This document shows positions 23,156 through 38,926 of a stretch of 41,671 bases of DNA, piece after piece. Made by a program: the position numbers and the translations under genes. The stretch lies in the IMG/VR virus record IMGVR_UViG_3300037391_000121. One strand, 5' to 3'. The notes under the pieces were generated by a model. The model ran no database searches and had not been told where the DNA came from. It saw only the letters and a program-made list of their open reading frames with translations. The DNA comes from a virus (Duplodnaviria > Heunggongvirae > Uroviricota > Caudoviricetes). The first letter of the stretch is position 1; each line of letters starts with the position of its first letter.

Positions 23156-23186
23156 CTAGCTGTTTTCTGACTTCCCATGGTATTAT
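23156..23186 (+). promoter_or_regulatory. promoter of tRNA-Ser cluster leader
   Basis: CTAGCT-N19-TATTAT with extended TGG; shares CATGGTAnTATATAGAAG with 38719-38736. Confidence 0.8.
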
Positions 23187-23228
23187 ATAGAAGTTGGCTC
23201 ACCGCAAGAAGGTGACCCGGACACACAA

Positions 23229-23303
23229 ATGATCGTTATCAGCATATCATCGTTATCGTCTAGTAGCTCCTCACGGGGCGACGGCATCGGTGTGTGCTTG
23301 TAA
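23229..23303 (+). CDS. Ser-rich attenuator leader peptide (24 aa, MIVISISSLSSSSSSRGDGIGVCL)
   Basis: 9 Ser codons using all six Ser triplets plus ATA and TTA, between a promoter and a terminator. Confidence 0.8.
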   Translation: MIVISISSLSSSSSSRGDGIGVCL

Positions 23304-23342
23304 GTATCTGAAAACAAGCAGATTAGATTCACCGAGCAGCCG
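23282..23342 (+). promoter_or_regulatory. antiterminator hairpin of leader 1
   Basis: TGCTTGT/ACAAGCA, TCGGTG/CACCGA and CGGC/GCCG; the last pairing takes the left arm of the terminator. Confidence 0.7.
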
Positions 23343-23370
23343 CCAAAACTAGGGCGGCTTTTGTGTTTTT
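23338..23370 (+). terminator. intrinsic terminator (attenuator) before tRNA-Ser genes
   Basis: AGCCGCC-aaaactag-GGCGGCT followed by TTTGTGTTTTT. Confidence 0.85.
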
Positions 23371-23386
23371 GTACGCAAGTTAACAG

Positions 23387-23478
23387 GGTGAGTTGGGCGA
23401 GTGGCTGATGCCGCAGGTTTGCTAAACCTGAGTGCCTCGAAAGGGGCACCGTGGGTTCGAATCCCACACTCACCGCCA
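23387..23478 (+). tRNA. tRNA-Ser(GCT)
   Basis: GGTGAGT/ACTCACC acceptor, CAGGT-TTGCTAA-ACCTG, long V arm, G73, CCA. Confidence 0.95.
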
Positions 23479-23516
23479 TTTTGAGAAGTACGCGGATGGA
23501 TTAGCAACGTCCGTTT

Positions 23517-23606
23517 GGTGAGTTGGGAGAGCGGCTGAATCCGCCACGTTGGAAGCGTGGAGCACCCGCAAGGGTGCCGTGAGTTCGAATCTCACACTCA
23601 CCGCCA
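23517..23606 (+). tRNA. tRNA-Ser(GGA)
   Basis: CCACG-TTGGAAG-CGTGG, long V arm, G73, CCA. Confidence 0.95.
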
Positions 23607-23611
23607 GTTCT

Positions 23612-23705
23612 GGTGGGCTTGGTACATGGGCAAGTCCGCTCGTCTTGAAAACGAGTACGGGGCAGAGATGCTCCGTTGGGAGTTCGACTCTCCCGTCCAC
23701 CGCCA
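23612..23705 (+). tRNA. tRNA-Ser(TGA)
   Basis: CTCGT-CTTGAAA-ACGAG, long V arm, G73, CCA. Confidence 0.93.
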
Positions 23706-23709
23706 GTTT

Positions 23710-23804
23710 GGTGAGGTTGGTACATTGGCAAGTCCGCTCGCCTCGAAAGCGAGTCGCGGGGCTAACCGCCTCGCGTGCAGGTTCAACTCCTGTCCTCACC
23801 GCCA
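23710..23804 (+). tRNA. tRNA-Ser(CGA)
   Basis: CTCGC-CTCGAAA-GCGAG, long V arm, G73, CCA. Confidence 0.93.
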
Positions 23805-23900
23805 GTTTGACTCACGTGCCTAATGTGTGCCGATGTTTGGCCTCGTGACCCGCGAGGGATATGAGAAGCAGAAGTCAAAGTTTTCGTGGTATTATTGGGT

Positions 23901-24209
23901 ATGAAGTCTTACGAACCATGCGTCGAAGACGCCACGGCCCATATCCACGTTGATTGGAAGACACACGAGAGCACGGGGAAATTTGCCCCGTACCCGAAAA
24001 TATTTTGTAGTGTGTGCCCGCCGTCAACGACAGCGGAAAGTGAAGAGGAGTACCGCAAGTACGTGGCATACGAGAAGCGAGAAGCTTTGAAGTACGCTAC
24101 GCGGAGACCGAGCCAATCGCTTCGTCTTCGGCTGTACCGTCACCGCATTTTGATTATGTGCGGATTTCTGGTCGCAGCGTATTGCGTACTCCATTGGATT
24201 TTGCGGTAG
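23901..24209 (+). CDS. hypothetical protein with C-terminal TM
   Basis: ATG 5 nt after TGGTATTAT (leaderless-type). Confidence 0.7.
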   Translation: MKSYEPCVEDATAHIHVDWKTHESTGKFAPYPKIFCSVCPPSTTAESEEEYRKYVAYEKREALKYATRRPSQSLRLRLYRHRILIMCGFLVAAYCVLHWILR

Positions 24210-24211
24210 AC

Positions 24212-24289
24212 GCCCGAGTGATGCAACTGGCAGACATTTCCCACTTAAAACGGGAATTTTTGGGAGTTCGAATCTCCTCTCGGGCACCA
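24212..24289 (+). tRNA. tRNA-Leu(TAA), short variable loop
   Basis: GCCCGAG/CTCGGGC, loop CTTAAAA, T arm GGGAG-TTCGAAT-CTCCT, A73, CCA. Confidence 0.85.
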
Positions 24290-24294
24290 AGTTT

Positions 24295-24388
24295 AGAGGG
24301 TAGCATTGGTGTGCGGGTGGGCCTTATAAACCTGCAATCGCGGCTGATTACCGTACTCGGACGGGTTCGATTCCCGTACCCTCTACCA
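24295..24388 (+). tRNA. atypical tRNA with TAT anticodon (nominal Ile), long V arm, minimal D arm
   Basis: AGAGGGT/ACCCTCT, loop CTTATAA, 25-nt variable region, T arm, A73, CCA. Confidence 0.7.
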
Positions 24389-24418
24389 TATTTCCCCGCC
24401 CCGTGGTATTATCCTAGT

Positions 24419-24763
24419 ATGGATGAATTAAAACTTCCCGAGGGTGAACTGACGTTTGCCGAGCCGCAAGTCTTCCTGATTCAAATCAGCAACAACTCCG
24501 AGCCGCTGGTTAGCCTCAAGATGGACGGTACAATCGAGTATGGGCCGAACTACACGCCCGACGAAGCTGCTCGCGTCTTTTGGGAAGCCCTCGGCATTTT
24601 GCCAAGAAATACTAGGGAGATTCGAGAGAAGGTCGAACTGCTGGACCTAGATTTCAAACGCCTAGATTTCAAACGCCTAGAATCGAAATACGGTAAAGAG
24701 GGGTATACGGAGTGGATGGACGTTCGCGAAACCATTGATGAACTCAAGGCGCTGGTGAAATGA
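24419..24763 (+). CDS. hypothetical protein
   Basis: ATG 6 nt after TGGTATTAT. Confidence 0.7.
   Translation: MDELKLPEGELTFAEPQVFLIQISNNSEPLVSLKMDGTIEYGPNYTPDEAARVFWEALGILPRNTREIREKVELLDLDFKRLDFKRLESKYGKEGYTEWMDVRETIDELKALVK
24646..24681 (+). repeat. 15-bp tandem repeat (2.4 copies)
   Basis: CCTAGATTTCAAACG x2 + CCTAGA, encoding LDFKR LDFKR LE. Confidence 0.85.
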
Positions 24764-25116
24764 TTGGTGAAATAAAAGTGCCGAAGTGGTTCATGGCGTT
24801 GTGGAAGCACTACGTGGGGCTCGACCCCTACCGCTGCTACATGACCGACGAACACCCTCCGATTGTTGGGCCTAGCAAGGTAATTCGCGTCCACATGACG
24901 GTGGACATCGAAGTGCCTCACCGATTTCACACTCAGAAAGCCAATCTTGGCATTGCCCGCTCCTGCATCATGGAAGAGTTCAAGACCGAGGAGACCGCCC
25001 GCATCCAGACATGGCACATCGTGAAAGCTGAGGACTTGACCACAGGGCAGCCCTCACGCAACGGATGTAAGGTCTGTGGGAAGCCGTGGAGCGATAAGGA
25101 TTGTCAGCAAGTATGA
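24760..25116 (+). CDS. hypothetical protein
   Basis: ATGA coupling. Confidence 0.7.
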   Translation: MIGEIKVPKWFMALWKHYVGLDPYRCYMTDEHPPIVGPSKVIRVHMTVDIEVPHRFHTQKANLGIARSCIMEEFKTEETARIQTWHIVKAEDLTTGQPSRNGCKVCGKPWSDKDCQQV

Positions 25117-25349
25117 GTAAACAAAAGCCAGCCAAAGCGTTATGCCCAACCTGTCTTGGGACAACTGTTGAGCAGAGCCCGAACCCGCATGATCCCGGTG
25201 CTGGCGATTGCTTCACTTGCAAATGGAATCCGAACTTTTTCCAATTCAAGGACATCAGCGATTGGGCTGAGTACCTTCGTTGTCTGCCGCAGGATGCGAA
25301 AGACGAGATGCGTAAACCCGGGCGGCTGGTGCTTGAACGAGGATTATGA
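25113..25349 (+). CDS. hypothetical protein with CxxC pairs
   Basis: ATGA coupling at 25113. Confidence 0.65.
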   Translation: MSKQKPAKALCPTCLGTTVEQSPNPHDPGAGDCFTCKWNPNFFQFKDISDWAEYLRCLPQDAKDEMRKPGRLVLERGL

Positions 25350-25378
25350 TTCTGCCGTTGATTCTCTGGACGTGGTGC

Positions 25379-25407
25379 TTGGCTGGGTTGGCAAGCGGTG
25401 GTATACT
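25379..25407 (+). promoter_or_regulatory. sigma70-like promoter
   Basis: TTGGCT-17-TATACT with extended TG. Confidence 0.6.
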
Positions 25408-25442
25408 AACAGTGGATGCTTTGTTGGGTCTTTGGAGATGTT

Positions 25443-26020
25443 ATGAATCCGAGTGAAGAGTGGCTTGAAAAATACGGAAGGTTCTGGGGAAACGTCACGG
25501 ACGAGCCGAAGAAACCGTACCAGTTGACCACTCGTGAGATGTACGACGCGCACATGGATCAGTACACGGATGACACCGCCTGTCTGAGCATGACGAAGAC
25601 CGACCATCCCAGCTACCAGTTCATCAAGAACCAACTCGGAATGCGGGCAGTCCCCTACCTGCTGGAAGACATCCAAGCGCAACACCCAGACGGTTCGTTC
25701 GACCACACCAGCTACCACAGCTTTTGGGGAGCGTGTAGTCTGTTCCGCAACATCCTCTACGAGAATGGAATTCCGGGCCCAGAGATTCCCGAGCCGTATC
25801 GCGGGAGGTTGAGCACATCCGCGAGATATACGTGGACTGGGGCGTTCAAGAAGAGTTTTTAGCAGACAACCACGTGCCGTCGATCCCGATAAAGCTGGAT
25901 CAGGTGCATCGGTTGGTTCCAAATCGATTTTTCGGTCTCCGTAATTACGTGTGGAGATTGACCACTCTCCCAAATCGCCATCGCATGAAACACGCATGGG
26001 ACTTTTGGAGAGCAATATGA
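25443..26020 (+). CDS. hypothetical protein, apparent frameshift near 25805
   Basis: ...IPEPYRG continues naturally as VEHIREIYVDWGVQEEF... in the adjacent frame. Confidence 0.55.
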
Positions 26021-26029
26021 GGAGTTTCA

Positions 26030-26254
26030 ATGGCAAAGGCACAAACAGCACGCAAACCGCAGGACAGGGTGATGCGATTGCTCGACGAACTTCGGGAGCG
26101 CCCGAATGAGGAAAGCATCCGCAGGATTTTGAACGCATCGGAAGATGCCCGCCATGCTCGAATGGAATACTTCGGGCTGAGCAAAGCAGTGAAAAAGATT
26201 CTAAACCGAGAGTTGACTGAACGCGAGAACACTCTCATCAAGAGGTTATCATGA
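26030..26254 (+). CDS. hypothetical protein
   Basis: GAGGAG SD. Confidence 0.75.
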   Translation: MAKAQTARKPQDRVMRLLDELRERPNEESIRRILNASEDARHARMEYFGLSKAVKKILNRELTERENTLIKRLS

Positions 26255-26298
26255 GCAACGAAAGCGGCATTGGCAATGATGGGTAGGAGGAATTGGCA

Positions 26299-26608
26299 AT
26301 GATCGACTTCATGTTCTTTCTCGTTTTTCTGTTCGTAGCAGGATTCATCACTGGTGTTGGGGCTTTGATCCATCGAGAATCCGAATCGTACCGAAAAGAG
26401 CATTCGCAGAATCATAACGACAGGCGTGTTTATCGTCGTCGGCGTCCTGTTGTACTACGGCATTCGCGCTTTGGCCCACTGGCTCGGCGGGATTCAACTC
26501 AACCTGCCCAATCTCAGCAACCACGATTTCGAATGGTTGGTCATCGCCCTTCTTGCGGTCATTTGCTTGAACGGCGGCGGAAGCTGCAACTGCAAGTGCG
26601 GCAAGTGA
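26299..26608 (+). CDS. multi-pass membrane protein, apparent frameshift near 26370
   Basis: removing one C joins MIDFMFF...GALI to IENPNRTEKSIRRIITTGVFIVVG... Confidence 0.5.
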
Positions 26609-26766
26609 AACGCCTTTGCAACTTCATGCACAACCACCCAGTCCTCGGCTGGACGGCATCGTTCTTCGTGGGCGGGCTGGTGTGGCTGTTTGCGACGTTC
26701 ACCATAATTTATGCAGTGCTGATGGTGTTGGCCGTTTTGTTCCACGCCAACATCCCGATTCAATAA
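26605..26766 (+). CDS. small membrane protein
   Basis: GTGA coupling at 26605, hydrophobic. Confidence 0.55.
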   Translation: MKRLCNFMHNHPVLGWTASFFVGGLVWLFATFTIIYAVLMVLAVLFHANIPIQ

Positions 26767-26774
26767 GGAGCCTC

Positions 26775-26984
26775 ATGGCTAAGAAGGAAGACAACACTCG
26801 GAATCACACGGGCTTTGCCGCGTGGGAGAAGCGGAAAGCCGAAATCAACTCGGGCATCGAATACAAGAATGCCCAAAGCATGTACCGCCGTGCGGCCCTC
26901 ACCGCCCGGGCAGAAGAGGGTCGGCTGACCGACAAGAATTACGTCGAGATGGCGACGGTCGGGCTCCAGCTAAAGCGTTCATGA
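26775..26984 (+). CDS. hypothetical protein
   Basis: AAGGAG SD, ATG 26775. Confidence 0.7.
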   Translation: MAKKEDNTRNHTGFAAWEKRKAEINSGIEYKNAQSMYRRAALTARAEEGRLTDKNYVEMATVGLQLKRS

Positions 26985-27181
26985 GCGACGAACAGAAGCC
27001 CCAGATGGATACCAGCATCATCCGCGAGATGATGGCTCACTGGATTCCGTTCCCTGATGCCGCATACTGGAAGAAGTTTGGCATCGAGCCGAACCCAGAC
27101 GGCACCATCGACACTCCGGGGGGATTCCGCATCCCCACTCGTGAGATGTGCGAAAAAATCGGCTACCGAACCCTCAGGTAG
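26981..27181 (+). CDS. hypothetical protein
   Basis: ATGA coupling at 26981. Confidence 0.65.
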   Translation: MSDEQKPQMDTSIIREMMAHWIPFPDAAYWKKFGIEPNPDGTIDTPGGFRIPTREMCEKIGYRTLR

Positions 27182-27388
27182 ATGGAGGGTTCGATGCCGA
27201 TCATTCGAATTGACGATCCCAAAGTCTACATTGGGATGGACGTAGAAGCCGCTCGTCGAGATATCATCAGTCACGAGTACGAAGTCCGCGTGATCCAGAA
27301 AAACCTGCCCTACAAGCCTGATTACGATCCCCTCCGCATCTGCTTATTTGTTGAGAAAGATAAGGTCATCGACGCCAAGATCGGATAA
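27182..27388 (+). CDS. peptidase-inhibitor I13/I78 (potato inhibitor I fold)-like protein
   Basis: G.....A......VRVI.......DY.P.RI.L.V....VI....G pattern. Confidence 0.55.
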   Translation: MEGSMPIIRIDDPKVYIGMDVEAARRDIISHEYEVRVIQKNLPYKPDYDPLRICLFVEKDKVIDAKIG

Positions 27389-27413
27389 CCTGTTGATTCC
27401 ACTGCGTTAAAAC

Positions 27414-27444
27414 CTAGCCAAAACCCGAGCTTTTACGGTAGAAT
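27414..27444 (+). promoter_or_regulatory. phage promoter, CTA(G/T)C(C/T)-N19-TAnnAT class
   Basis: CTAGCC 27414-27419, TAGAAT 27439-27444, ATG 5 nt later. Confidence 0.65.
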
Positions 27445-27449
27445 GGGGT

Positions 27450-28157
27450 ATGGCGAAGAAAACCCCATCCACCGTCCACGAATTTGATATGGAGCTTACT
27501 CCATTTTCGAGTATGCAACTTTACGGCGACAAAAAGTACAGCCTCCAAAACATGGTTCTCAAGATGGCGGACTATCCCGCCAAGATGGACTCGGCGGTCG
27601 ATCAGCATTTCAGCATCTACGTGGATCGCGCATACACGCAGTGGCACGCGGCCTCACGCGGCATCCCGAGCACACAGACGGGCGATGCGTGGTGGGCGGG
27701 CGTCTCTGACAGGGAGTTTCTGCGATTCGCTGGCAAGCTGTTCGCCATCCTCAACACGCCCCGCAAGGTCACGGGCGACGAGTACGTGCAGAACGCCAAC
27801 CACTATTCCAACCAGTACCTCAGTCGCCTCGCAGAGCTTCAAGGCTCGATGGCTCTGGCTGGTCTGGACGCAGACGGCTACGACAATCTCGACCTCCGCA
27901 TCAAAACTCGTGAGTGGGCCGAAGTCGCTGCCGCCGAGGAGATCGAGCCCCTGCCACTTACTGGTGCGCTGATGGTTCGCATGACGAACGTGAGCAGCGG
28001 TTATCCGTGCCCCGTTCTCATGGGCATCATCCAGAAATCGAAGTTCGCTCGTTACAGCGGGAACTCCGCTCCGTTCATCAAACAGTTCCGTTCGCACATG
28101 GACATATTCGGCAATCCCCGCCTCTACGCCAACGAGTACGAGGAGGATCGGTACTGA
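27450..28157 (+). CDS. hypothetical protein
   Basis: 235 aa, strong coding bias. Confidence 0.8.
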   Translation: MAKKTPSTVHEFDMELTPFSSMQLYGDKKYSLQNMVLKMADYPAKMDSAVDQHFSIYVDRAYTQWHAASRGIPSTQTGDAWWAGVSDREFLRFAGKLFAILNTPRKVTGDEYVQNANHYSNQYLSRLAELQGSMALAGLDADGYDNLDLRIKTREWAEVAAAEEIEPLPLTGALMVRMTNVSSGYPCPVLMGIIQKSKFARYSGNSAPFIKQFRSHMDIFGNPRLYANEYEEDRY

Positions 28158-28456
28158 TGGGACCGAAGCCAACAGCGAAGCAATTAGAGACACTCACCAA
28201 GCTGGCTCTCCCCGGCGTCACCGTCCACGAATGGTCGGAGACTCGCGGTGGACTGCACGCCTACATTTCCTACCCCTCTGGCAATCCGAAGAAAAGCAAC
28301 GCGACTGAGGTCATGAATCACGGCACTCTTGGCAAGTTCGTTTCATGGGACTGGTTGAAGCCCGTGGGCGATCCCGAAATGGCGTGGCGAAACATGGAGT
28401 ACGTAATCACCGAAGACGGACTCGAAGTCATCAAGAAGGGTGAGGTCAGAAAATGA
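28157..28456 (+). CDS. hypothetical protein
   Basis: GGAGG SD, TGATG coupling. Confidence 0.7.
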   Translation: MGPKPTAKQLETLTKLALPGVTVHEWSETRGGLHAYISYPSGNPKKSNATEVMNHGTLGKFVSWDWLKPVGDPEMAWRNMEYVITEDGLEVIKKGEVRK

Positions 28457-28800
28457 GCGGTAACGTGTTTCGTTTTGACAGGCAGACAGCCAAGTGGGGC
28501 ACCTACGGCAAAGGCGGCTTTGAGCATTGTGCGGGCCGCTGCCCTGAGCACCAGCTACGATACAAGTTGCTGGTCGATTGCGACACCGACCACCTGCAAA
28601 TGATCTTGAAAAACCAGCGGCAGGTTGATCGGCACCCGCAGTATAAGTCGCTCATCCACTCCATCCTGATCGAGCGTGGTGAAGTTCCCGAGCCGTTCAG
28701 CCAAGCCGCCGAGGACGAATTGTTTCGGCATTACATGGCCGCTCTCAAGAATTTTCCTGTGGTACAATCGGGGTTTGGGGGAACCAATGCGACTTGTTAA
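28453..28800 (+). CDS. hypothetical protein
   Basis: ATGA coupling. Confidence 0.7.
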   Translation: MSGNVFRFDRQTAKWGTYGKGGFEHCAGRCPEHQLRYKLLVDCDTDHLQMILKNQRQVDRHPQYKSLIHSILIERGEVPEPFSQAAEDELFRHYMAALKNFPVVQSGFGGTNATC

Positions 28801-28978
28801 GAAGGGTAAAGACCCGCAAACCGAAATCTGGAAGGCGACCTGCACAAATTGCAAGTCGCAGTACGAAGCACAGCGGAGTGAACTCAAAGTTGAGGACACC
28901 CAACGCGACGGCGCATTTGCTCATGCACGTTGCCAAGTGTGCAAGCAGGATATGATTTTCTACCCATCGAGGGGATAA
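28787..28978 (+). CDS. small zinc-ribbon protein
   Basis: GGGGGA SD; CTNC ... CQVC. Confidence 0.7.
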   Translation: MRLVKKGKDPQTEIWKATCTNCKSQYEAQRSELKVEDTQRDGAFAHARCQVCKQDMIFYPSRG

Positions 28979-28981
28979 CGT

Positions 28982-29392
28982 ATGTCAAAAAATCACGGCG
29001 TCACAAAACGCAACCGCCGCTCAATATCGAAGGCGCGGCCCAAGCAGGCTTCCGCACGGATCGCCCGAACGATGGCGACCCTCAAGCAGCTTGAAAAGCG
29101 GGACAAGGCTCTCGCACAGATACACGAGGCTTACCCAGAGGACACCGTTCGGGCAGCCTTCCTGCGAAGGGAAGACATCATCGCTCTGCCGCCAGAGGAA
29201 CAGGAACGTCGATTCGTAGAGCACATGATCCGCGTTGAGGGATTCTTCAAAACGATTGCGGGGATGGACCCGATCTTTGTGCAAGACAACCGTATGCCCC
29301 AGATCATGGTCGAAGAGGGCATCGACACCACGGACATTCCCGAGGTAAGGGACTGGACTGGTGCTGTGCGAGGCAAGTTCCACAGGGAATAA
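28982..29392 (+). CDS. hypothetical protein
   Basis: 136 aa. Confidence 0.7.
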   Translation: MSKNHGVTKRNRRSISKARPKQASARIARTMATLKQLEKRDKALAQIHEAYPEDTVRAAFLRREDIIALPPEEQERRFVEHMIRVEGFFKTIAGMDPIFVQDNRMPQIMVEEGIDTTDIPEVRDWTGAVRGKFHRE

Positions 29393-29992
29393 ATGAAGCA
29401 GTACCCACATATCGAAGGCCCTGCTAAGGCTCCTCTGGGAGTCCCGTGCATCGCTTTCTACAAGTACGATGGAAGCAACTTGCGGTGGGAGTGGTCGCCG
29501 AAGCAGGGCTGGCACAAGTTCGGCACCCGGCACGAGATGTTCAATGCGACTCACCCGCTGTTCGGGCAGGCGATTCCAATCTTCATGGACACGATGGCGG
29601 ACGAGATTGTGAAGCGATGCAAGAAGGTTGAACGTGGCGTCCAACGCATCAACGTGTTCACCGAGTTCCTCGGGCCGAGCAGCTTCGCGGGCTTGCATGA
29701 CGAGAAGGAACCGAAAGAGCTTCGGCTGTTCGATGTCAACCTATTCAAGCGAGGCATCATGTCACCCAAGCTGTTCGTTGATACGTTCGGCGACTTGCCA
29801 TACGCGGCTCAGGTAGTTTACAGAGGCAATCTGAACCGCCAGTTCATCGAGGATGTTCGCATGGGACTCTACCCTGTGAACGAGGGCGTAATCGCCAAGG
29901 GCAATGATTTCATGGTGAAGATCAAGACGTATGCGTACTTGAAGCGGTTGAACGAAAAGTTCGGTGCAGATTATCGCAACTATTGGGAATAA
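29393..29992 (+). CDS. ATP-dependent RNA ligase-like nucleotidyltransferase (Rnl2-type core)
   Basis: motif I KYDGSN, FTEF (III), LFDV (IIIa), EGVIAK (IV), VKIK (V). Confidence 0.8.
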   Translation: MKQYPHIEGPAKAPLGVPCIAFYKYDGSNLRWEWSPKQGWHKFGTRHEMFNATHPLFGQAIPIFMDTMADEIVKRCKKVERGVQRINVFTEFLGPSSFAGLHDEKEPKELRLFDVNLFKRGIMSPKLFVDTFGDLPYAAQVVYRGNLNRQFIEDVRMGLYPVNEGVIAKGNDFMVKIKTYAYLKRLNEKFGADYRNYWE

Positions 29993-30001
29993 GGAGGCAG
30001 T

Positions 30002-30343
30002 ATGAAATCACGTATCATCACAGGGGTGTTTTGCATTCTGACGATCATTTTCCTGTTCGCCAGTTTGGGTCATGCTCAATCGGTTGGCACCAGTGTACAG
30101 CCCGCTTACGGGCCGTCGTATTCGGTTCCAGATCACCCGCAGCACGCCGAGCAGCACGACCTGCGACCCGAGGTCAGCTTGATCGGCGGCTCCAGCTACA
30201 CCTACGCGCAAGGCGAGCGCCCGATGTCCGACTTCCCCGAGTACAGGTACGTGAAGCCACTCGGTGACGTGGCACGCGCATATCGTGCGGAACACGCGGC
30301 GGCTGAGAAGGCTACCATCGTCTGGAATCAGCAAGGTCAGTAA
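30002..30343 (+). CDS. secreted hypothetical protein
   Basis: GGAGG SD, signal peptide ending AHA/GHA-Q. Confidence 0.75.
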   Translation: MKSRIITGVFCILTIIFLFASLGHAQSVGTSVQPAYGPSYSVPDHPQHAEQHDLRPEVSLIGGSSYTYAQGERPMSDFPEYRYVKPLGDVARAYRAEHAAAEKATIVWNQQGQ

Positions 30344-31720: not shown

Positions 31721-32640
31721 CAGCCAAAGCAAAGATGGCGGGCAACACGCTGGTTTACGGGAACCGCAAACAGCCCGATATGAAGTGGGACATCAGCACG
31801 CCCGAACTGCGGGCGAAGGCGTTCCTCGAACTGTTCAAGTACCTCAAGAAAGAGTGGGTGGTCTACACTTGCGACTATTGGGGTGCGACCAAGGCCGAGA
31901 TCGCCCAGCAGAAGGAACTCTATCGCCTTGCCTCGGATGGCGATGCAGAAGCCGCCGAGCGGCTGCTCAGGATGCGTATCGACTACGAATACGAGAATTG
32001 GCGGATTGTCGCGGTTCCAAGGTCAGGCGACGGCGAACCCAAGATGGTTCTCAGCAAGAAACCCGGCAGCGTTTTCGTGAAAGACATTCGTCGCCAGTCC
32101 GACACGGGGCGGTACTCGTTTCAACTCAGCAATGGGGAGGAGATCGAATTCGCCTATCTCCCGATCAGCACGACTCGCAACGATTGGTCAAACGGACATA
32201 TCGTCCCCCATTTTCTGGTTGACTCGTTCTACGAGAAGCTGGGCCGCGACCGCGACTTTGAGAAGACGACCACCGAACTCCTGTCGCATATCAATTACAT
32301 GCGGATGACGCTCCACTACACCATGCATCCCGAGCAGATGCCCCTTGGCAAGTCGCTCCCGATCTGGCAGCGACGGTCAATTGACGGAGCCGAGAGCTAC
32401 ATCGAGGATTTGGGTGAGAACCCAGTCGAGAAGCTCAAGGACAAGGTTGTCCGTCCTACAAATCTGCAAAAGGCCCAGAACACGATTAGCGAACTCGTGT
32501 TACACTACGAGGGTCTGCTGAACCACGTCAAGCGTGTCACCGAAGGCAAGAGTACGGTCGAAGAGTTGAAGCAATACACCGTGCCTTCGTATGCCAAGAA
32601 ACTTGGCGAGATCAAGAAGGGGATCATCAACGAGCTATGA
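31717..32640 (+). CDS. hypothetical protein
   Basis: GGAGAGG SD, ATGA coupling at 31717. Confidence 0.8.
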   Translation: MTAKAKMAGNTLVYGNRKQPDMKWDISTPELRAKAFLELFKYLKKEWVVYTCDYWGATKAEIAQQKELYRLASDGDAEAAERLLRMRIDYEYENWRIVAVPRSGDGEPKMVLSKKPGSVFVKDIRRQSDTGRYSFQLSNGEEIEFAYLPISTTRNDWSNGHIVPHFLVDSFYEKLGRDRDFEKTTTELLSHINYMRMTLHYTMHPEQMPLGKSLPIWQRRSIDGAESYIEDLGENPVEKLKDKVVRPTNLQKAQNTISELVLHYEGLLNHVKRVTEGKSTVEELKQYTVPSYAKKLGEIKKGIINEL

Positions 32641-32909
32641 TGACCGATTTCGAAATTAAATTCACGCGGAGCATGGGGGATATGCGTCCGCCCGGAGCAC
32701 GGGAGCTAATCAACGCTCTCGGGGATTACGCGGAGGGCACGAAAACGCTGTCCAAGCAGGACGCCGCTGACGCCCACAATTACATCTGTGCGTTGGAATC
32801 CAAGGTTTGCGGACTTCACCACGAACTGGAAGCGATCAAGCAGCAGAAGTCCGACCGCCTCACCCACCTGATGGAAGACCGCAAGAATTCGCTGGGAATA
32901 CCGATATGA
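32637..32909 (+). CDS. hypothetical protein
   Basis: ATGA coupling. Confidence 0.7.
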   Translation: MMTDFEIKFTRSMGDMRPPGARELINALGDYAEGTKTLSKQDAADAHNYICALESKVCGLHHELEAIKQQKSDRLTHLMEDRKNSLGIPI

Positions 32910-33088
32910 AATTCGTGAAGGTCACCTTCATAACGGACGACGGTGAGGAGATCGAAACGACGCCGCAGGAATTCAAGTTGCGGCTGGTGTACCCGGGCCA
33001 AACAACGCTTACCATTCCAGCGAAGGAAGAGGGAAAAGAGGGAATGTGCAGGCCGCTGGTTAACTTCCCATGTGGGTTTAGACTGTGA
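32906..33088 (+). CDS. small hypothetical protein (tandem paralog 1)
   Basis: MKFVKVTFITDDGEEIETTPQEFKL. Confidence 0.65.
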   Translation: MKFVKVTFITDDGEEIETTPQEFKLRLVYPGQTTLTIPAKEEGKEGMCRPLVNFPCGFRL

Positions 33089-33255
33089 AAGTCATCTTTG
33101 AGACGGACGAGGGCAGGAAGTACGAAGTTACGCCCGAACAAATACGTCTGACGCAAATCGGCACAAGATCGGCTGCACTTCAAATACCCGCCGACGATGA
33201 CTTAGTGGACGTACTGGTGTTCGACTGCGTACTGACACTGGAGGGACGGAAATGA
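33085..33255 (+). CDS. small hypothetical protein (tandem paralog 2)
   Basis: GTGA coupling; MKVIFETDEGRKYEVTPEQIRL. Confidence 0.65.
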   Translation: MKVIFETDEGRKYEVTPEQIRLTQIGTRSAALQIPADDDLVDVLVFDCVLTLEGRK

Positions 33256-33428
33256 ACTTCGGACACGGAGAAGGATGCATCTGCCGCGAGTGCCATCGCG
33301 TTCGCCATCTGCTGGCTCAGTGTGAGGACGCTATCCGTGGCGCGAACCGAGCAATCAACACACTCGGCAGGTATCAGACCGACCGCCTCGTTGAGCAGTT
33401 GGAACGGTCTCTGGGAAGGAAACTCTGA
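33252..33428 (+). CDS. small hypothetical protein
   Basis: MNFGHGEGCICRECH...; coupled both sides. Confidence 0.55.
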   Translation: MNFGHGEGCICRECHRVRHLLAQCEDAIRGANRAINTLGRYQTDRLVEQLERSLGRKL

Positions 33429-33703
33429 TGGAACTTGTAGAAGCGTATTCCAACGTTCGGGAAATGACCCCCGAAGTGTTGCTCGAACTCACGCAGTCCC
33501 ACAAATACCAAGAGGTTAAACGCTCGTTCCAGCAAGACATCGGCTTGCACAGTAAGCTGGTTGTCACGCAGGAAGACATCGAGAACATGGGCGAGACCCT
33601 CAAGATGATTGTGTTCTTCGTTTCGCCCGCCATTATCCGTGGCGCAGTTGAACTGGCGAAAGAGAAGAGCGTCCTCGGGGTCAACTCGAACTGGCTGAGG
33701 TAG
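33428..33703 (+). CDS. hypothetical protein
   Basis: TGATG coupling. Confidence 0.7.
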   Translation: MELVEAYSNVREMTPEVLLELTQSHKYQEVKRSFQQDIGLHSKLVVTQEDIENMGETLKMIVFFVSPAIIRGAVELAKEKSVLGVNSNWLR

Positions 33704-33705
33704 TC

Positions 33706-34752
33706 ATGGAAAACGAAAAACGTAATGTAGATTGGCCCGCAAAAGCAACCGACGAGTGCTTTCCCGATGTCCCTGTGGAAGGCGAAACCAGAAAGAAACG
33801 CGAGGGTTTTGAGTTTGTCTACGCTGACATCGTAGGTAGCTGGTACATGTCGCCCGAGACGTTCGTGCGGATGGACGGGAGCGAGCAGAAGGACATCATG
33901 CCGGGGCATTTTGGCTTCCTGATTCGCTGGGGTGTCAAGAACTATGGCTTCGGCGAATACTCGGTGCGGTTTGGCACCGATGGCAAGATCGAAGTGCAGG
34001 ACGAGTTCAGCGGCCCCGAGTTCTCGAAGGCATTGTTCGCCTATCTGGGGCAGAAGGTCGCGGAGATCGGCGAGCACGATCACCAACGGAAGAGAAAAAG
34101 AAGCAGGAAGAAGCCGCGAGGGTCAGCGAAGCGGGGGAACCTGATGTTTCCTAATATCTCCGTCCCCCAAGCCCTCGACGTTTACGATGATCTGGTCAAG
34201 GCGTACTACGGCGAGCATGGCTATGGCGGCAACGTGGCCGAAATCTACTGCTACCGCCTGTGCCCCAGCAACCCCTCGGCGGCTGCGGCGATTCGTGCGG
34301 GCGTACAGTACGACAAGCACCCCAACAAAGACGGTTTTCTCTACCCCGCGATGATGGAGGAAGCACACACGGCGGCGGATAACCTGTTCGCTGTCATTGA
34401 GCATTTCCAGCAGAAGTACCCCGATGCCAAGGTACATTTTGAAGACAGCATCCAAGACCCCGAAGCCGACGAGGGTGTGGGCAAGATCGTGTGGAGAATT
34501 CCTCGGGCGTACCTTCGCGGCGGTGTCCTGCATCGGGTGCGTGTGCCGTGTGAAGCATCCAAATCAGAAGATTCACGGGGAGGACTAATGCCAGTTACCG
34601 TAGACCACATGTCTCCCGGTGCCTTAGCCGTACTCAAGAGCGCCCTGCAAGAGATCATCGAGTTGCCGCAGCCAGACCTACATGACTGCGACGACGATCA
34701 GGTGATCGAACTCCTTTCGGACATGATCGAAAAAGAAGAGGAAAAGGAATAG
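33706..34752 (+). CDS. long ORF probably comprising up to three genes (33706, 34144, 34588) joined by apparent frameshifts
   Basis: internal SD+ATG at 34144 and 34588 with natural-looking C-terminal tails ending at stops 34154 and 34588 in other frames. Confidence 0.45.
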   Translation: MENEKRNVDWPAKATDECFPDVPVEGETRKKREGFEFVYADIVGSWYMSPETFVRMDGSEQKDIMPGHFGFLIRWGVKNYGFGEYSVRFGTDGKIEVQDEFSGPEFSKALFAYLGQKVAEIGEHDHQRKRKRSRKKPRGSAKRGNLMFPNISVPQALDVYDDLVKAYYGEHGYGGNVAEIYCYRLCPSNPSAAAAIRAGVQYDKHPNKDGFLYPAMMEEAHTAADNLFAVIEHFQQKYPDAKVHFEDSIQDPEADEGVGKIVWRIPRAYLRGGVLHRVRVPCEASKSEDSRGGLMPVTVDHMSPGALAVLKSALQEIIELPQPDLHDCDDDQVIELLSDMIEKEEEKE

Positions 34753-34753
34753 C

Positions 34754-34924
34754 ATGGCGTGGAAGACTTTCACCCTCTTTGAACCGCACTCGGACGGAGC
34801 CGCCTACAGTGGGAGGCCCATCGAAGAACAACTCGATCAAATCGAGGCGAATGACTACGAAATTCGCTTTGTGTTCAAGGAGTCGGCGAGGTATACTGTA
34901 CTGGCAAGACGTAAGGCACACTAA
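34754..34924 (+). CDS. small hypothetical protein (56 aa)
   Basis: AAGGA SD; TAATG coupling to next gene. Confidence 0.6.
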   Translation: MAWKTFTLFEPHSDGAAYSGRPIEEQLDQIEANDYEIRFVFKESARYTVLARRKAH

Positions 34925-35865
34925 TGACCATTTTCGAACAATTGAAGGCCAACAAGTTCCCCTACGCGAACAATCTGATCCACCTATTCAGGGGTGGGTC
35001 TGATCTCCATGGGGCGCAGCTTGTGAACAAGCACGATGACGACTGGTACGGCGTTTACGTTGAGCCGCCAGAGATGGTCATCGGCCTCAAGGATTACCCC
35101 CACTACGTGTGGTCGTCTGCGGGCGACACAAAGCGGAATGTTCCCGGCGATATGGACATCTGCTTTTACTCGCTGCGGAAGTGGGCGAAGCTCGCCTCGG
35201 GCGGGAACCCCACTTGCCTGTCGTACCTTTTCGCCGAGAACACCCTGCCTGTCACCGATCTATGGCAAGAGGTACGGAACATGCGGAAACTCTTCCTGTC
35301 AAAGGCGTGTGCGGAGCAGTTCCGTGGGTTTGCTATGGCCCAGCGTCAGCGGTACATGGGCGAACGCGGGCAGGGCAAGCACGGTCAACGTCCCGAGCTT
35401 GAGGAGAAGTTTGGCTTCGATACCAAGGCTGCCATGCACGTTATGCGGCTCCTCGGCGAGGGGATTGAACTTATGCAGGCTGGTGAGATCACCTACCCCC
35501 GTCCGAACAAGAGTCTGCTGATTGCCGTCCGCGAGGGCAAGTACGATCAGGCATTCCTCAAGGACATGACGGACACCCTGTTTGCCGATCTGGACAGGGC
35601 ACAGCGCGAGTCCGACCTACCCGATGAGGTTGACAGGGAAGCTGTGTCCAAATTCCTGACCAAGTTCTACCTCAAGGTTTGGGGAAGAGACGACTGTGTG
35701 ACCAACCGCATTCTGGCACGAGGGTTGGGACTTGCCTGCCGCTGGATCGCGGGACACCTACGGGCAGATGAGCGGGCGGATGGGCATCCCGCGTGGGAAG
35801 AATGGCGTGACGAGTCTGTCGTCAAGATCGCCATGATCGACATGGCAATGCGAGCGGAGGACTAA
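34924..35865 (+). CDS. DNA polymerase beta superfamily nucleotidyltransferase (RlaP/Nuc-transf-like)
   Basis: GGSDLHG, DDDWYGVY, SLRK...GNP, K.A.H..RLL. Confidence 0.8.
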   Translation: MTIFEQLKANKFPYANNLIHLFRGGSDLHGAQLVNKHDDDWYGVYVEPPEMVIGLKDYPHYVWSSAGDTKRNVPGDMDICFYSLRKWAKLASGGNPTCLSYLFAENTLPVTDLWQEVRNMRKLFLSKACAEQFRGFAMAQRQRYMGERGQGKHGQRPELEEKFGFDTKAAMHVMRLLGEGIELMQAGEITYPRPNKSLLIAVREGKYDQAFLKDMTDTLFADLDRAQRESDLPDEVDREAVSKFLTKFYLKVWGRDDCVTNRILARGLGLACRWIAGHLRADERADGHPAWEEWRDESVVKIAMIDMAMRAED

Positions 35866-35956
35866 TGCCACAAGTACCTTGCACTGGCGAAGGATGTTGG
35901 ATGTGCCTGATGCAAGCCGAAATTGAAGGCTTGACGGCACCATATTGGGGGGCGTA

Positions 35957-36148
35957 ATGGCGTCGATTTGCGGAAATATCGTCATGAACAACGCGGGCTC
36001 GGAGCGGCACTTCGACAGCCGTGAGGATGCGAGCCGAGCGTATGCCCTTCTCTGTGACTATGAGGCGTTCCTAAGCGATCTTGTCAATGACGGCAAGATA
36101 ACCGTTAAAGACCACCAAGCGCATCCGTGGGTGACGACAAAGGAATGA
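35957..36148 (+). CDS. hypothetical protein
   Basis: GGGGG SD, ATG 35957. Confidence 0.55.
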   Translation: MASICGNIVMNNAGSERHFDSREDASRAYALLCDYEAFLSDLVNDGKITVKDHQAHPWVTTKE

Positions 36149-36420
36149 CAGGCGTTTGCGAACTCTGTGACCGTGAGCGAAACGATATCACGGATCACCA
36201 CCTGATCCCCCGCACACTTCACAGCAACAAGCGGGTCAAGGCGGCGTTCCCTAAGGAACTCCTGAAAAAGACCGCCCCGCTGTGCAAGCCGTGCCACAGG
36301 CAGATACACGAGTTCTTTACGGAGAAAGTGCTGGGCTGGCACTACAACACGATTGAGAAATTGAAAGCTCACCCCGAGGTTCAGAAGTGGATCGCGTGGG
36401 TCGGAAAGAAGACGTTCTGA
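36145..36420 (+). CDS. small HNH-family nuclease-like protein
   Basis: CELC..., DHHLIPR, LCKPCH.QIH. Confidence 0.8.
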   Translation: MTGVCELCDRERNDITDHHLIPRTLHSNKRVKAAFPKELLKKTAPLCKPCHRQIHEFFTEKVLGWHYNTIEKLKAHPEVQKWIAWVGKKTF

Positions 36421-36683
36421 TGCCGAGACTTAAAATAGGTACTGGATCATGGCCGTACAAACGGAGATGGCGGGACGGCCCTACTTGGGCTTGGCTTTGC
36501 CGAATACTCGGGCATCAAAAGGAATGGTATCACTGGTATGCCAGTGCTGGAGACCAGCTAGGTACGGCTATTGCGGAGGCGTTGGGTTGGGGGAATGGCC
36601 GAATAAAAGCATACTGGCATCTTCATGGAACTAACTCCGCGAACGGCTTCATCTGTGGCAGGTGCGGAAAGGCTGGCATTTAA
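36420..36683 (+). CDS. hypothetical protein
   Basis: TGATG coupling. Confidence 0.65.
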   Translation: MPRLKIGTGSWPYKRRWRDGPTWAWLCRILGHQKEWYHWYASAGDQLGTAIAEALGWGNGRIKAYWHLHGTNSANGFICGRCGKAGI

Positions 36684-36919
36684 TGGGAACCCTCAATATC
36701 AATTACCGCGATCTCGAAATCCAATTGCTGGTCAACGAAAGACTCAATCAGGCTGTCGAGAACGGCTATGACGAGAGCAAGGATGACCCGAAGCTGGTTG
36801 CTCAGAGCCTAGCGGATGAGGACTCGGACATTGAAAGATTGGTCTGGGATCACTTTGACGGCGACGAGACCATCCTCATCCCCTTCATTGAGGTTTGGCA
36901 GCGAAAGCGGTTGGCATGA
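36683..36919 (+). CDS. hypothetical protein
   Basis: TAATG coupling. Confidence 0.7.
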   Translation: MGTLNINYRDLEIQLLVNERLNQAVENGYDESKDDPKLVAQSLADEDSDIERLVWDHFDGDETILIPFIEVWQRKRLA

Positions 36920-37089
36920 AAAAAGAGGATTTGGTCAGGATCATCAACACCCTACACGCTCTCGTGGAGAAGGTACAAGACGAACGAGACACCTGCCTTA
37001 GCTGCGATCAGGACGAGTCAATGCACGCCGAAGACTGCGAAATGGAATGGCTAGAGGCTGACATCCAAGAAGCGCAGAGTGATGCCTAA
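36916..37089 (+). CDS. hypothetical protein
   Basis: ATGA coupling. Confidence 0.65.
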   Translation: MKKEDLVRIINTLHALVEKVQDERDTCLSCDQDESMHAEDCEMEWLEADIQEAQSDA

Positions 37090-37359
37090 ATGTACAGCGA
37101 TATGATCGGTCGCATTCGGGCTGACGTGCATTACATGCGGCAAGCCATGGATGAGATTCGTGGGGATGGCTTCGGTCGAGCGGGCTACCTCAAGAGTGAG
37201 TTCAAGAAAGCCATCCGCCGCCTAGAGTCCCTCCAAGCCATGCTGGAAGAAGGCCCGCTACCTGAAGCTGCCGAAGATGCCAACCCAAATTGCTGCGGAC
37301 ACGGTATTGAGAATGTGGCGGGTTGCGAGTGTCGTCTCATCGCGAAGGGGTTAAGATAA
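37090..37359 (+). CDS. hypothetical protein
   Basis: 89 aa. Confidence 0.65.
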   Translation: MYSDMIGRIRADVHYMRQAMDEIRGDGFGRAGYLKSEFKKAIRRLESLQAMLEEGPLPEAAEDANPNCCGHGIENVAGCECRLIAKGLR

Positions 37360-37592
37360 TGCAGACTGAAGCAACGTTCACCAGCGACCAACAGTACATC
37401 CATATCACGCAAACGAGGTTCCGCTACTGGCATTTCCCCGAGGGCTGGCGGGTATTGCCGAAGGACGCCGAAGATCGGACGCCAGATCAAGACGTGGTTC
37501 TCAACGATGAGAGATGCTTTAAGATTTTGGTCGATTACTTCAGTCAATGGAGATGGAAATCTGCGGGTGCTGGATACGACGGGAAAGCCTAA
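37359..37592 (+). CDS. hypothetical protein
   Basis: TAATG coupling. Confidence 0.65.
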   Translation: MQTEATFTSDQQYIHITQTRFRYWHFPEGWRVLPKDAEDRTPDQDVVLNDERCFKILVDYFSQWRWKSAGAGYDGKA

Positions 37593-37677
37593 GATCGCTA
37601 ACTAAGAAATCTTCTGGTATTTGATTTCTTTTTCATGTATGCTCCTTTGCAAGTGATCGGCAAAATAGGAAGTGTCT

Positions 37678-38226
37678 ATGACTCCCGGGCGTCGTTTGAA
37701 GTGGCTCAACTGTTCGATCTCTGCTTCTTTTCTTATCCCCGCATACATCCTTGCATCGTTTTTCCATCCGAGTGCTTCAACTTGGATCATTGGGCTGTTC
37801 GGCGGGTTGCTCTGGGCTAACTGGTTCGAATACGCCTATCATCGCTGGTTGGATCACACCCCCGGTCTCCGCTGGGAGAAACTCCACCGCGAGCACCACA
37901 AAGCTCCCCTCGATGAGACCCACGTCAATCTCGGCAGCACGCCCTTCGACACGTTCATGATGTTCGTCGTCAACTGCACGCCAGTCGTTTGCGCGGACAT
38001 CTGGTATCAGACGGGCTTCTCCGCTCCCGTGATAGTCGCTTTTGTCATCTATGTCCTCGTCATGGAAGAGGTTCACTGGCGGGTGCACATGGGCGGTTAC
38101 GTGCCTCAATGGATCAAGACCTACCACCTATCCCACCACGCCATGGGCGATACCCCCACTGGCGGGAAGACCAAATTCAACATTTTTGTTCCCCTCTTTG
38201 ATTGGGTTTTTGGTACAATGGGGTAA
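37678..38226 (+). CDS. fatty acid hydroxylase / sterol desaturase family membrane di-iron enzyme
   Basis: His boxes YHRWLDH, HREHH, HWRVH, HLSHH with four TM segments. Confidence 0.85.
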   Translation: MTPGRRLKWLNCSISASFLIPAYILASFFHPSASTWIIGLFGGLLWANWFEYAYHRWLDHTPGLRWEKLHREHHKAPLDETHVNLGSTPFDTFMMFVVNCTPVVCADIWYQTGFSAPVIVAFVIYVLVMEEVHWRVHMGGYVPQWIKTYHLSHHAMGDTPTGGKTKFNIFVPLFDWVFGTMG

Positions 38227-38696
38227 TGCGGCCTCTACCACCGTTCCACAATAAGGTTGTCATGGAATGCCACGCCAGTCACCCGCTCGGCTCGCGGATT
38301 GCTCGAATCGTGGAGGACATCGACTACCGCCAGCGACCCATCCAATGGATGATCGCCCTCTTCAAGTTCGGCTTCGATGAACCCAAGGACGATGGTCACC
38401 TGTCCACGTATGGTCTGCCGCGATTGCCTGAGGAATACGACTCCTGCCTTGTCCGCCTCCTCGTCAAGGTAGTAGACATCACGAACCCCAACCCCGAGGC
38501 CGACCCCATTACGCTGTTCCTACCAGTGATGACTATCCATCCGAACTTCACCGATGAACAGATCATCCACTTCATTTACACCATGATTCGGAACATGGAG
38601 CAGCACGAACTGGACGAGCATTTCTTCTTCCGAGGCGTCAAGGTTCGGGACCCGCACAAGAACGACTCCCCCGCCGCAGAAAATAAATTTCGCTAA
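38226..38696 (+). CDS. conserved phage hypothetical protein
   Basis: ATG 6 nt after TGGTACAAT; ends EQHELDEHFFFRGVKVRDPH. Confidence 0.75.
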   Translation: MRPLPPFHNKVVMECHASHPLGSRIARIVEDIDYRQRPIQWMIALFKFGFDEPKDDGHLSTYGLPRLPEEYDSCLVRLLVKVVDITNPNPEADPITLFLPVMTIHPNFTDEQIIHFIYTMIRNMEQHELDEHFFFRGVKVRDPHKNDSPAAENKFR

Positions 38697-38698
38697 TC

Positions 38699-38729
38699 CT
38701 ATCCTTTTTTCCGATTTCCATGGTAGTAT
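38699..38729 (+). promoter_or_regulatory. promoter of second tRNA-array leader
   Basis: CTATCC-N19-TAGTAT with extended TGG; near-identical to 23156-23186 region. Confidence 0.8.
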
Positions 38730-38748
38730 ATAGAAGCTGAGGAAAACA

Positions 38749-38871
38749 ATGACTCTGAAAAACGCCAATTCGACCGTAGCGACAGCCCATAAGGGCGTCG
38801 GCGGCAAGCGCCAGCGGAATAATCGCTGGTTCGGCGAGGGTCTGTCCTCGGTAGGAGTGGTCGGAATCTAA
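38749..38871 (+). CDS. attenuator leader peptide (40 aa, MTLKNANSTVATAHKGVGGKRQRNNRWFGEGLSSVGVVGI)
   Basis: TGAGGA SD; run AAG CGC CAG CGG AAT AAT CGC TGG at 38806-38829 matches downstream anticodons. Confidence 0.8.
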   Translation: MTLKNANSTVATAHKGVGGKRQRNNRWFGEGLSSVGVVGI

Positions 38872-38906
38872 GACAAAACTCCAAAACGAGATCATGACCC
38901 AACCGG
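38826..38906 (+). promoter_or_regulatory. antiterminator hairpin of leader 2
   Basis: GGAGT/ACTCC, CTCG/CGAG, GGGTC/GACCC, GGTT/AACC; sequesters the left arm of the terminator. Confidence 0.7.
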
Positions 38907-38926
38907 ACTTAGACGGTTGGGTTTTT
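38896..38926 (+). terminator. intrinsic terminator (attenuator) before tRNA array 2
   Basis: ACCCAACCG-gacttaga-CGGTTGGGT followed by TTTTGCATTTTT. Confidence 0.85.

Follow-up and report, generated by a model that had tools for sequence, protein, structure and literature searches.

Codon-matched leader cassettes before two tRNA arrays of an uncultured phage: probable attenuators of tRNA operons

The subject of this study is a stretch of 41,671 nucleotides (nt), below called the window, from an uncultured, soil-type phage (IMG/VR record IMGVR_UViG_3300037391_000121; Caudoviricetes). It carries two arrays of transfer RNA (tRNA) genes on the + strand, at 23387-24289 and 38948-41457 (ARAGORN and Rfam), the second of which is truncated by the end of the window. 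A compact cassette stands directly before each array: a promoter, a short leader open reading frame (ORF) containing a run of codons read by the tRNAs encoded behind it, and overlapping antiterminator and terminator sequences. We refer to them as the Ser (S) and the second (W) cassette. It is likely, in our assessment, that each is a ribosome-mediated leader-peptide transcription attenuator gating a phage tRNA operon; as judged from the sequence, each tRNA set is probably made only when its codons are decoded slowly. Codon-matched leader ORF, terminator and antiterminator switches before tRNA arrays had been proposed in an earlier reading of this DNA (the original prediction), and statistical, comparative and shuffled-pair evidence now supports them.

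Codon runs matched to the array behind them

The S leader encodes the peptide M-I-V-I-S-I-S-S-L-S-S-S-S-S-S-R-G-D-G-I-G-V-C-L. Measured with the window's own codon usage and against 528 short ORFs from all six frames, 11 of its 23 codons belong to the decoding set of its own array, with an uninterrupted run of 9 (binomial p 6e-7); when ATA is counted, the figures rise to 12 of 23 and a run of 11, and p drops to 7e-8. ATA (2.3 per thousand) and TTA (3.4 per thousand) are the rarest among the codons tabulated from the window's long ORFs; both have partners further along the array, TTA in tRNA-Leu(UAA) and ATA in a tRNA-like gene with a UAU anticodon. The W leader has a run of 8 (p ~1.6e-4); its overall count (12 of 39, p 0.12) is not significant alone, and the signal lies in the run. 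All W control codons find their partners in the W array (His GUG, Lys CUU, Arg ACG, Gln CUG, Arg CCG, Asn GUU and Trp CCA). Each leader is the sole member of the 528 short ORFs with such a run, and matched to the other array they score only 1 of 23 and 3 of 39. The earlier claim that the cassettes carry different control codons, each fitted to its own array, thus stands, with runs of 9-11 and 8 and no cross-match.

Relatives were collected by a neighbour-protein search and by a metagenome scan with a cassette-specific pattern. About 15 metagenomic loci (numbered L below) carry one or the other cassette before the same kind of array, two of them on one 133-kb contig; peat and bog samples are among their sources (for example the Ga0302325 contig). 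Most of the 55 matches of the metagenome scan were unrelated. The two leaders evolve differently. S leaders are nearly identical: only L026 differs in length, by an in-frame deletion of 3 nt that removes a Ser codon, and a 1-nt indel immediately 5' of the ATG falls outside the ORF. W leaders are far more varied, with CAG CGG AAT AAY CGC TGG in frame and invariant in all. The distance from the W ATG to the control hairpin is 36, 54, 57, 63 or 69 nt, in each case divisible by three, and the indels among relatives span 3-33 nt.

Across the W leaders, cognate codons account for 108 of 302 (36%) in frame, compared with 40 of 294 (14%) and 63 of 294 (21%) off frame. Even in the poorly conserved part upstream of the invariant element, 41 of 91 codons (45%) are cognate against a background of 21.8%, although the corresponding p of 7e-7 is overstated because these sequences share ancestry. 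Taken together, the restriction to in-frame indels, the frame-specific match and the cognate variable part argue that ribosomes translate the leaders and that selection acts on their codons; the Shine-Dalgarno sequence before the W ATG likewise speaks for translation. The same comparison disposes of a supposed peptide motif: an x-G-[DE]-G tail had been noted after the control run of both leaders, but relatives show G-V-G, D-V-G, S-V-G-G or G-S-D-G at this place, and what had looked like a motif is a feature of the RNA, the G-rich 5' strand of the antiterminator.

Leaders of this kind recur in unrelated phages. Caulobacter phage CcrBL9 (NC_048047.1, L067), a cultured phage of Caulobacter vibrioides CB15, encodes gp552, a protein of 39 residues annotated as hypothetical, in which 33 of 38 residues belong to the eight amino acids served by the following array (Pro-Thr-Lys-Leu-His-Ala-Ser-Trp). 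In the same phage, an ORF without annotation (record 88798) reads R-Q-F-V-R-Q-I-Q-S-V-R-V-N-R before a Val-Ile-Gln-Asn-Arg-Phe array (array D, leader RQFVRQIQSVRVNR); it is followed by a duplicate of the terminator 3' arm, a possible antiterminator, and then by a canonical terminator at 88929-88954, both of textbook form. In the 485-kb uncultured phage LR745208.1 (L066), the Glu/Asp, Arg/Gly and Thr arrays each follow a short ORF with many E/D, R/G or T residues, respectively; hairpins come after these ORFs, without clear U-tract terminators. These leaders resemble the window cassettes in that the short ORFs favour the amino acids which the following array serves, and array D also in its 1:2 / 2:3 / 3:4 arrangement with a canonical terminator. 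They differ in their unrelated sequences and sigma-70-type promoters, and array D in having ~150 nt and a further small ORF between terminator and first tRNA gene.

The match was scored for 13 arrays in the three phages as the best 10-codon window in any upstream ATG-initiated ORF, given the array's decoding set and the genome's codon usage. Own-array pairs sum to 40.6, compared with 21.8 +/- 6.6 for pairs permuted within genomes, and none of 5000 permutations reached the native value. The original prediction held that leader codons and array anticodons would agree more often than shuffled pairs do; at this small scale (13 arrays, three unrelated phages) they do.

Competing folds between leader and first tRNA gene

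The hairpins at 23338-23359 and 38896-38923 are the top two terminator-like sites between 22.5 and 41.7 kb, each with a U-tract. The terminators end 16 nt (S) and 24 nt (W) before the first tRNA gene, which leaves no space for another promoter, and are present in all relatives; from their structure, transcripts are predicted to end there. In all 13 distinct variants, the RNA spanning the last control codon and the terminator loop also folds into one long hairpin: the G-rich segment that comes after the control codons pairs with the 5' arm of the terminator, and the stop codon is held within. This fold persists across three terminator sequences. Over the same variants the antiterminators reach -26 to -34 kcal/mol and the terminators -13 to -17.5. 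The complementarity of the antiterminator strands averages -17.0 as against -12.0 +/- 1.0 after shuffling, with none of 500 shuffles reaching the native value. Folds were computed for each sequence separately, as RNAalifold on a MAFFT alignment was uninformative because the 3' halves misalign.

In the S cassette, the 3' strand of the antiterminator includes the terminator 5'-arm bases CGCC/GCCG, and its architecture is also found in L010, L046 and L026, where GGGGCG pairs with CGUCCC. The W antiterminator encloses a hairpin (38854-38883) that holds the stop codon. The gap of 8 nt between the last control codon and the antiterminator core, noticed at the outset in both cassettes, holds true in this genome: the last S control codon ends at 23273 and CGGC begins at 23282, the last W control codon ends at 38829 and GGGUC begins at 38838.

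Each leader can adopt a further fold that would sequester the G-rich segment. In the S cassette this is hairpin 1:2, which is retained in L026 and L024 despite changes in both arms. In the W cassette the closed fold joins the pairing of the Shine-Dalgarno region to one of the ORF start (38751-38766) with region 2, GGCGAGGGUC (38833-38842). It is predicted in all 9 variants, and L006 and L007 have compensatory changes in the Shine-Dalgarno and anti-Shine-Dalgarno strands. The contest of either fold with the far more stable antiterminator would be kinetic. For W transcripts ending before the terminator 3' arm, the 5' arm is calculated to be paired upstream with a probability (P) of ~0.75-0.80 when a ribosome footprint covers the control codons, and of ~0.31 when it covers the next dozen codons.

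These elements suggest the following mechanism. Transcription would begin at the phage promoter, and the short leader ORF would be translated while it is being made. With quick decoding, the ribosome would pass the G-rich segment and arrive at the stop codon inside the antiterminator hairpin, occupying the antiterminator 5' strand; the terminator could then form and transcription would end 16-24 nt before the first tRNA gene. A ribosome stalled in the control run (nine Ser codons with ATA and TTA in S; His-Lys ... Lys-Arg-Gln-Arg-Asn-Asn-Arg-Trp in W) would leave the G-rich segment free to pair with the emerging terminator 5' arm, so that polymerase would enter the tRNA genes. If the leader is not translated at all, the closed fold (hairpin 1:2 in the Ser cassette, Shine-Dalgarno:anti-Shine-Dalgarno and ORF start:region 2 pairing in W) would sequester the G-rich segment, and the default state would be off. 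As the products are the very tRNAs that are tested, the capacity to decode those codons would be under negative feedback.

Promoters, tRNA genes and other content of the window

The coordinates of all features are collected in Table 1. A 19-nt block, CCATGGTA(T/G)TATATAGAAG, occurs at 23175-23193 and 38718-38736, two exact matches where 0.01 are expected, and no third copy was found in a search allowing up to two mismatches. CTAGC (23156-23160) and CTATC (38699-38703) each lie 22 nt upstream of the TG of the extended -10. Both the block and the equally spaced CTA(G/T)C box had been located correctly in the original prediction, but their description as a module shared by the two cassettes does not hold in full, as box and extended -10 also drive the genes for Thg1, DNA ligase and others. 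They represent a phage-wide promoter class, in which a CTAGCC/CTATCC box precedes the extended -10 TGGTAnnAT by 22 nt and whose members include 4168 (before Thg1), 13089, 15115 (before the ligase), 23887, 24404, 38211 and others; box and spacing of the S promoter are identical to those at 4168, 13089 and 15115. Genes of this class usually have their ATG 5-8 nt past the -10 (leaderless), mostly at the predicted start. Only the start region TATATAGAAGYTG is peculiar to the two tRNA cassettes. The spacing from the -10 predicts the S transcription start at ~23191-23193; the W leader has a GAGGA Shine-Dalgarno 5 nt upstream of its ATG.

Six metagenome contigs (L017, L025, L045, L049, L051 and L056, three of them labelled human gut) have the 19-nt pattern 5 nt before a tRNA-Leu(UAA) gene, which appears to be an unrelated promoter/tRNA layout.

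Table 1 Features of the two cassettes and arrays in the window, and leader loci in two other phages
Feature	Position	Strand	Remarks
S cassette promoter	23156-23186	+	CTAGC box 23156-23160, then 22 nt, extended -10 TGGTATTAT 23178-23186
S cassette-specific start region ATAGAAGTTG	23187-23196	+	common only to W cassette; kept in all relatives
5' stem-loop UCACC / GGUGA	23199-23215	+	compensatory C:G to U:A change in L046 retains pairing
Ser leader ORF	23229-23303	+	24 codons + TAA; kept in 6 relatives
S control run	23241-23273	+	9 Ser codons, all six triplets; ATA and TTA the sole interruptions
S hairpin 1:2 (anti-antiterminator)	23257-23283	+	Ser codons CGUC..GCUCC with GGGGCGACG; -10.7 kcal/mol
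S antiterminator 2:3	23277-23344	+	-25.8 kcal/mol; 5' strand lies within codons 17-24; encloses stop codon
S intrinsic terminator 3:4 + U-tract	23338-23371	+	hairpin 23338-23359; 7 base pairs, 6 G-C; core -13.3 kcal/mol
tRNA-Ser GCU, GGA, UGA, CGA	23387-23804	+	jointly decode all six Ser codons
tRNA-Leu(UAA)	24212-24289	+	78 nt; behind internal promoter 23887 and ORF 23901-24209
UAU tRNA-like gene	24294-24388	+	acceptor stem, T arm, long variable arm, encoded CCA; behind promoter 23887
W cassette promoter	38699-38729	+	CTATC box, 22 nt, extended -10 TGGTAGTAT 38721-38729
W cassette-specific start region ATAGAAGCTG and Shine-Dalgarno GAGGA	38730-38743	+	GAGGA at 38739-38743
W closed (off) fold (predicted)	38736-38852	+	Shine-Dalgarno region GCUGAGGA pairs with UCCUCGGU (38845-38852)
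W leader ORF	38749-38871	+	40 codons + TAA; 30-43 codons in 9 distinct relatives
W control codons	38788-38829	+	CAT AAG, then AAG CGC CAG CGG AAT AAT CGC TGG (38806-38829)
W antiterminator	38830-38907	+	UUCGG..GGGUC with GACCC..CCGGA; -30.0 kcal/mol; starts 1 nt past TGG, reaches terminator 5' arm
W intrinsic terminator + U-tract	38896-38935	+	hairpin 38896-38923; 10 base pairs; -17.5 kcal/mol
W tRNA array	38948-41457	+	Trp, His x2, Arg CCG/ACG/UCG/ACG, Asn x2, Thr CGU, Gln CUG, Lys CUU x2
tRNA-like gene	39773-39839	+	Rfam tRNA 47.3 bits; anticodon arm CCCC-GGACA-GGGG; ARAGORN '???'
LR745208.1 leaders	L066 locus ~1940-2030, 10980-11096, 32705-32790		behind TTGACA / TATACT-type (sigma-70-type) promoters
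CcrBL9 leader loci	L067 18376-18495 and 25867-26023		apparent leaders of the phage's two large tRNA arrays

Two tRNA-like genes are unusual. The UAU gene in the first array scores 31.6 bits with the tRNA-Sec model, under the Rfam cut-off, and was missed by ARAGORN; its anticodon was assigned by covariance-model alignment. It is 100% identical in L026 and L028, where the flanks have diverged. The gene at 39773-39839 in the W array has a loop too short for a normal anticodon and a counterpart in L005 (5386-5453); a decoy or non-decoding role is conceivable. The W array further contains tRNA-Arg(ACG) (40027-40113) and tRNA-Asn(GUU) (40399-40484) genes of 86-87 nt, a length typical of class II tRNAs and their long variable arms; they adjoin normal-length copies for the same isoacceptors. 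In relatives this array extends to Arg CCU, Gln and Lys UUU. An Arg(ACG) gene at the expected position of Leu(UAA) in L026, at first sight a counter-example to the conserved array, proved to be a class II tRNA-Leu(UAA) miscalled by ARAGORN; next to this version, the tRNA-Leu(UAA) of the window measures only 78 nt.

The window is a phage-like stretch with nearly all of its long ORFs on the + strand. It encodes a Thg1-type tRNA-His guanylyltransferase (4190-5086), an NAD-dependent DNA ligase (15130-17298) and a nucleotidyltransferase of the RlaP family, known from RNA-repair pathways (34924-35865). Thg1 and RlaP in a phage with two tRNA-His genes suggest an investment in tRNA maturation or repair. 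Promoters lie inside or just past the Ser array, at 23887 before ORF 23901-24209 and at 24404 before ORF 24419-24763. A Pfam scan of about 30 neighbouring ORFs gave hardly any informative match. Among named phages and in IMG/VR no close relatives were found; matches were confined to the tRNA level, protein-neighbour scans were empty, and pattern matches in L001-L004 and L065 were due to chance and had no tRNAs.

Competing readings and known systems

Several results weigh against ribosome-mediated attenuation or narrow its reach. Equilibrium folding favours the terminator under every ribosome mask (P 0.6-0.97) and predicts no switching, so any switch must be kinetic. The trp attenuator behaves likewise: its 3:4 helix is more stable than 2:3 and the terminator is favoured at equilibrium. 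Co-transcriptionally, the S cassette differs little between a stalled and a non-stalled ribosome. The antiterminator 5' strand begins only 1-4 nt past the control run; its outermost pairs would be covered by a ribosome stalled on the final one or two codons of that run, and the strand would be fully free only if the stall came earlier. Antiterminator strands swapped between relatives with different terminators form equally good duplexes, so that for 2:3 the data establish conserved complementarity but not covariation. The last six W control codons sit within a hairpin, P1 (38810-38830), which is invariant at the nucleotide level, so that codon and structure constraints are inseparable there. 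The S leader has no Shine-Dalgarno near its ATG, as is the case for most genes of this phage. Expression of the Leu(UAA) and UAU genes could bypass the switch by way of the promoters at 23887 and 24404. Finally, some arrays in CcrBL9 and LR745208.1 stand without a matched leader.

What might trigger the switches is a separate matter. They had originally been read as an inducible counter-defence, which would hold back the replacement tRNAs for as long as the host pool has not been cut by anticodon nucleases of the host (PrrC, PARIS, VapC or colicin-like). This would be a special case of the attenuator model rather than another mechanism. Cleavage of host tRNAs, and its rescue by those of phages, has been documented (PMC10264068); the W array and leader include Lys, Arg, His and Asn, which are known nuclease targets (see also PMC10264068); the RNA-repair-type genes Thg1 and RlaP and the odd tRNA-like genes in both arrays point in the same direction. 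However, Ser, Trp, Gln and Thr are not classic targets. As nuclease damage, host shut-off and a scarcity of host tRNAs for the codons favoured by the phage look alike in the sequence, and as the same design precedes arrays for many other amino acids in other phages, counter-defence is best regarded as a sub-case of modest probability, possible but not the expected outcome. An attenuator would report slow decoding of any cause, and a demand-driven feedback on tRNA supply fits the data equally well.

A more specific variant, which we regard as rather unlikely, would make the cassettes multi-codon sensors of host-tRNA integrity that release nuclease-resistant tRNAs upon cleavage by defence systems, with the genes at 39773-39839 and 24294-24388 as decoys or specialised replacements. 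The release of each reserve set would then await a signal from ribosomes that the corresponding host tRNAs had been cleaved.

Alternatively, promoter, short ORF and terminator could make up a stand-alone small gene for a micropeptide or small RNA with a leaky terminator. Constitutive read-through, or transcripts from further upstream, would then supply the tRNAs, and the codon match would be without regulatory meaning. The equilibrium preference for the terminator, the almost invariant Ser peptide and the lack of a terminator between the upstream genes and the cassettes would suit such a gene. It would leave unexplained the frame-specific and array-specific codon runs, the conserved antiterminator around the stop codon and the recurrence with unrelated sequences in CcrBL9 and LR745208.1, and W peptides vary in length and sequence yet keep their cognate codons; we therefore consider it improbable. 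A translation-independent RNA switch with an incidental ORF, either a T-box-like binder of uncharged tRNA or a protein-controlled antiterminator, would accord with the strong structure of the leaders (z -2.8 and -4.5) and the invariant hairpin in part of a control run, but is very improbable, since a T-box reads one specifier codon and not 8-11, in-frame-only indels and frame-specific enrichment favour translation, and searches with the T-box (RF00230), leader and riboswitch models of Rfam gave nothing at gathering score, nor with E relaxed to 1 (S region) or 10 (W region).

If the attenuator reading is right, the phage would gauge the speed of decoding for the codons that its tRNAs serve and adjust their supply, and leader-peptide attenuation would be extended to genes for non-coding RNA. 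The leaders would also suggest which tRNAs share an operon and which codons the phage treats as limiting. With CcrBL9, the design can be tested in a cultured phage of a laboratory model host. The purpose of phage tRNA genes has been debated for decades, between compensation for codon usage and replacement of degraded or cleaved host tRNAs; to our knowledge, their regulation has hardly been addressed. A full-text literature search found no published description of leader-peptide control of tRNA genes and none of the CcrBL9 and LR745208.1 leader cassettes, and the eLife article on phage tRNAs and anticodon nucleases (PMC10264068) does not discuss promoters or leaders. The lack of an Rfam leader match implies that the cassettes are not sequence relatives of known leaders.

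Their design nevertheless has precedents. T-boxes sense tRNA status and choose between terminator and antiterminator upstream of translation-related genes, as the phage cassettes would; T-boxes do so without translation, by binding uncharged tRNA through one specifier codon and the T-box motif, whereas the phage cassettes present a multi-codon ORF. In Escherichia coli, the pheM leader of the pheST operon applies attenuation to part of the translation apparatus, and its control codons are cognate to the gene product. The operon shares this leader-peptide principle with the mechanism proposed for the phage cassettes and differs in that it is bacterial, concerns an aminoacyl-tRNA synthetase and one amino acid, and contains no tRNA genes.

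The closest counterparts are the multivalent leaders of ilvGMEDA, with Ile, Leu and Val codons, and of thr, with Thr and Ile codons; trpL, hisL, leuL and pheL are devoted to a single amino acid. The phage cassettes have in common with ilv and thr a promoter-proximal short ORF, a cluster of codons for several amino acids, a terminator, an overlapping antiterminator and a putative 1:2-type anti-antiterminator, and, with all leaders of the ilv, thr and trp type, a design in which the position of the ribosome would select the fold. In contrast to these enterobacterial leaders, the cassettes occur in a phage, have no sequence similarity to Rfam leaders and, in the case of W, would build the off fold from the Shine-Dalgarno sequence and ORF start instead of the control codons. 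Individual codons match isoacceptor anticodons (six Ser triplets; CGG, CGC, AAG and CAG), and the genes under control would be those for tRNAs, not for biosynthetic enzymes, so that the output would feed back on the very quantity that is sensed.

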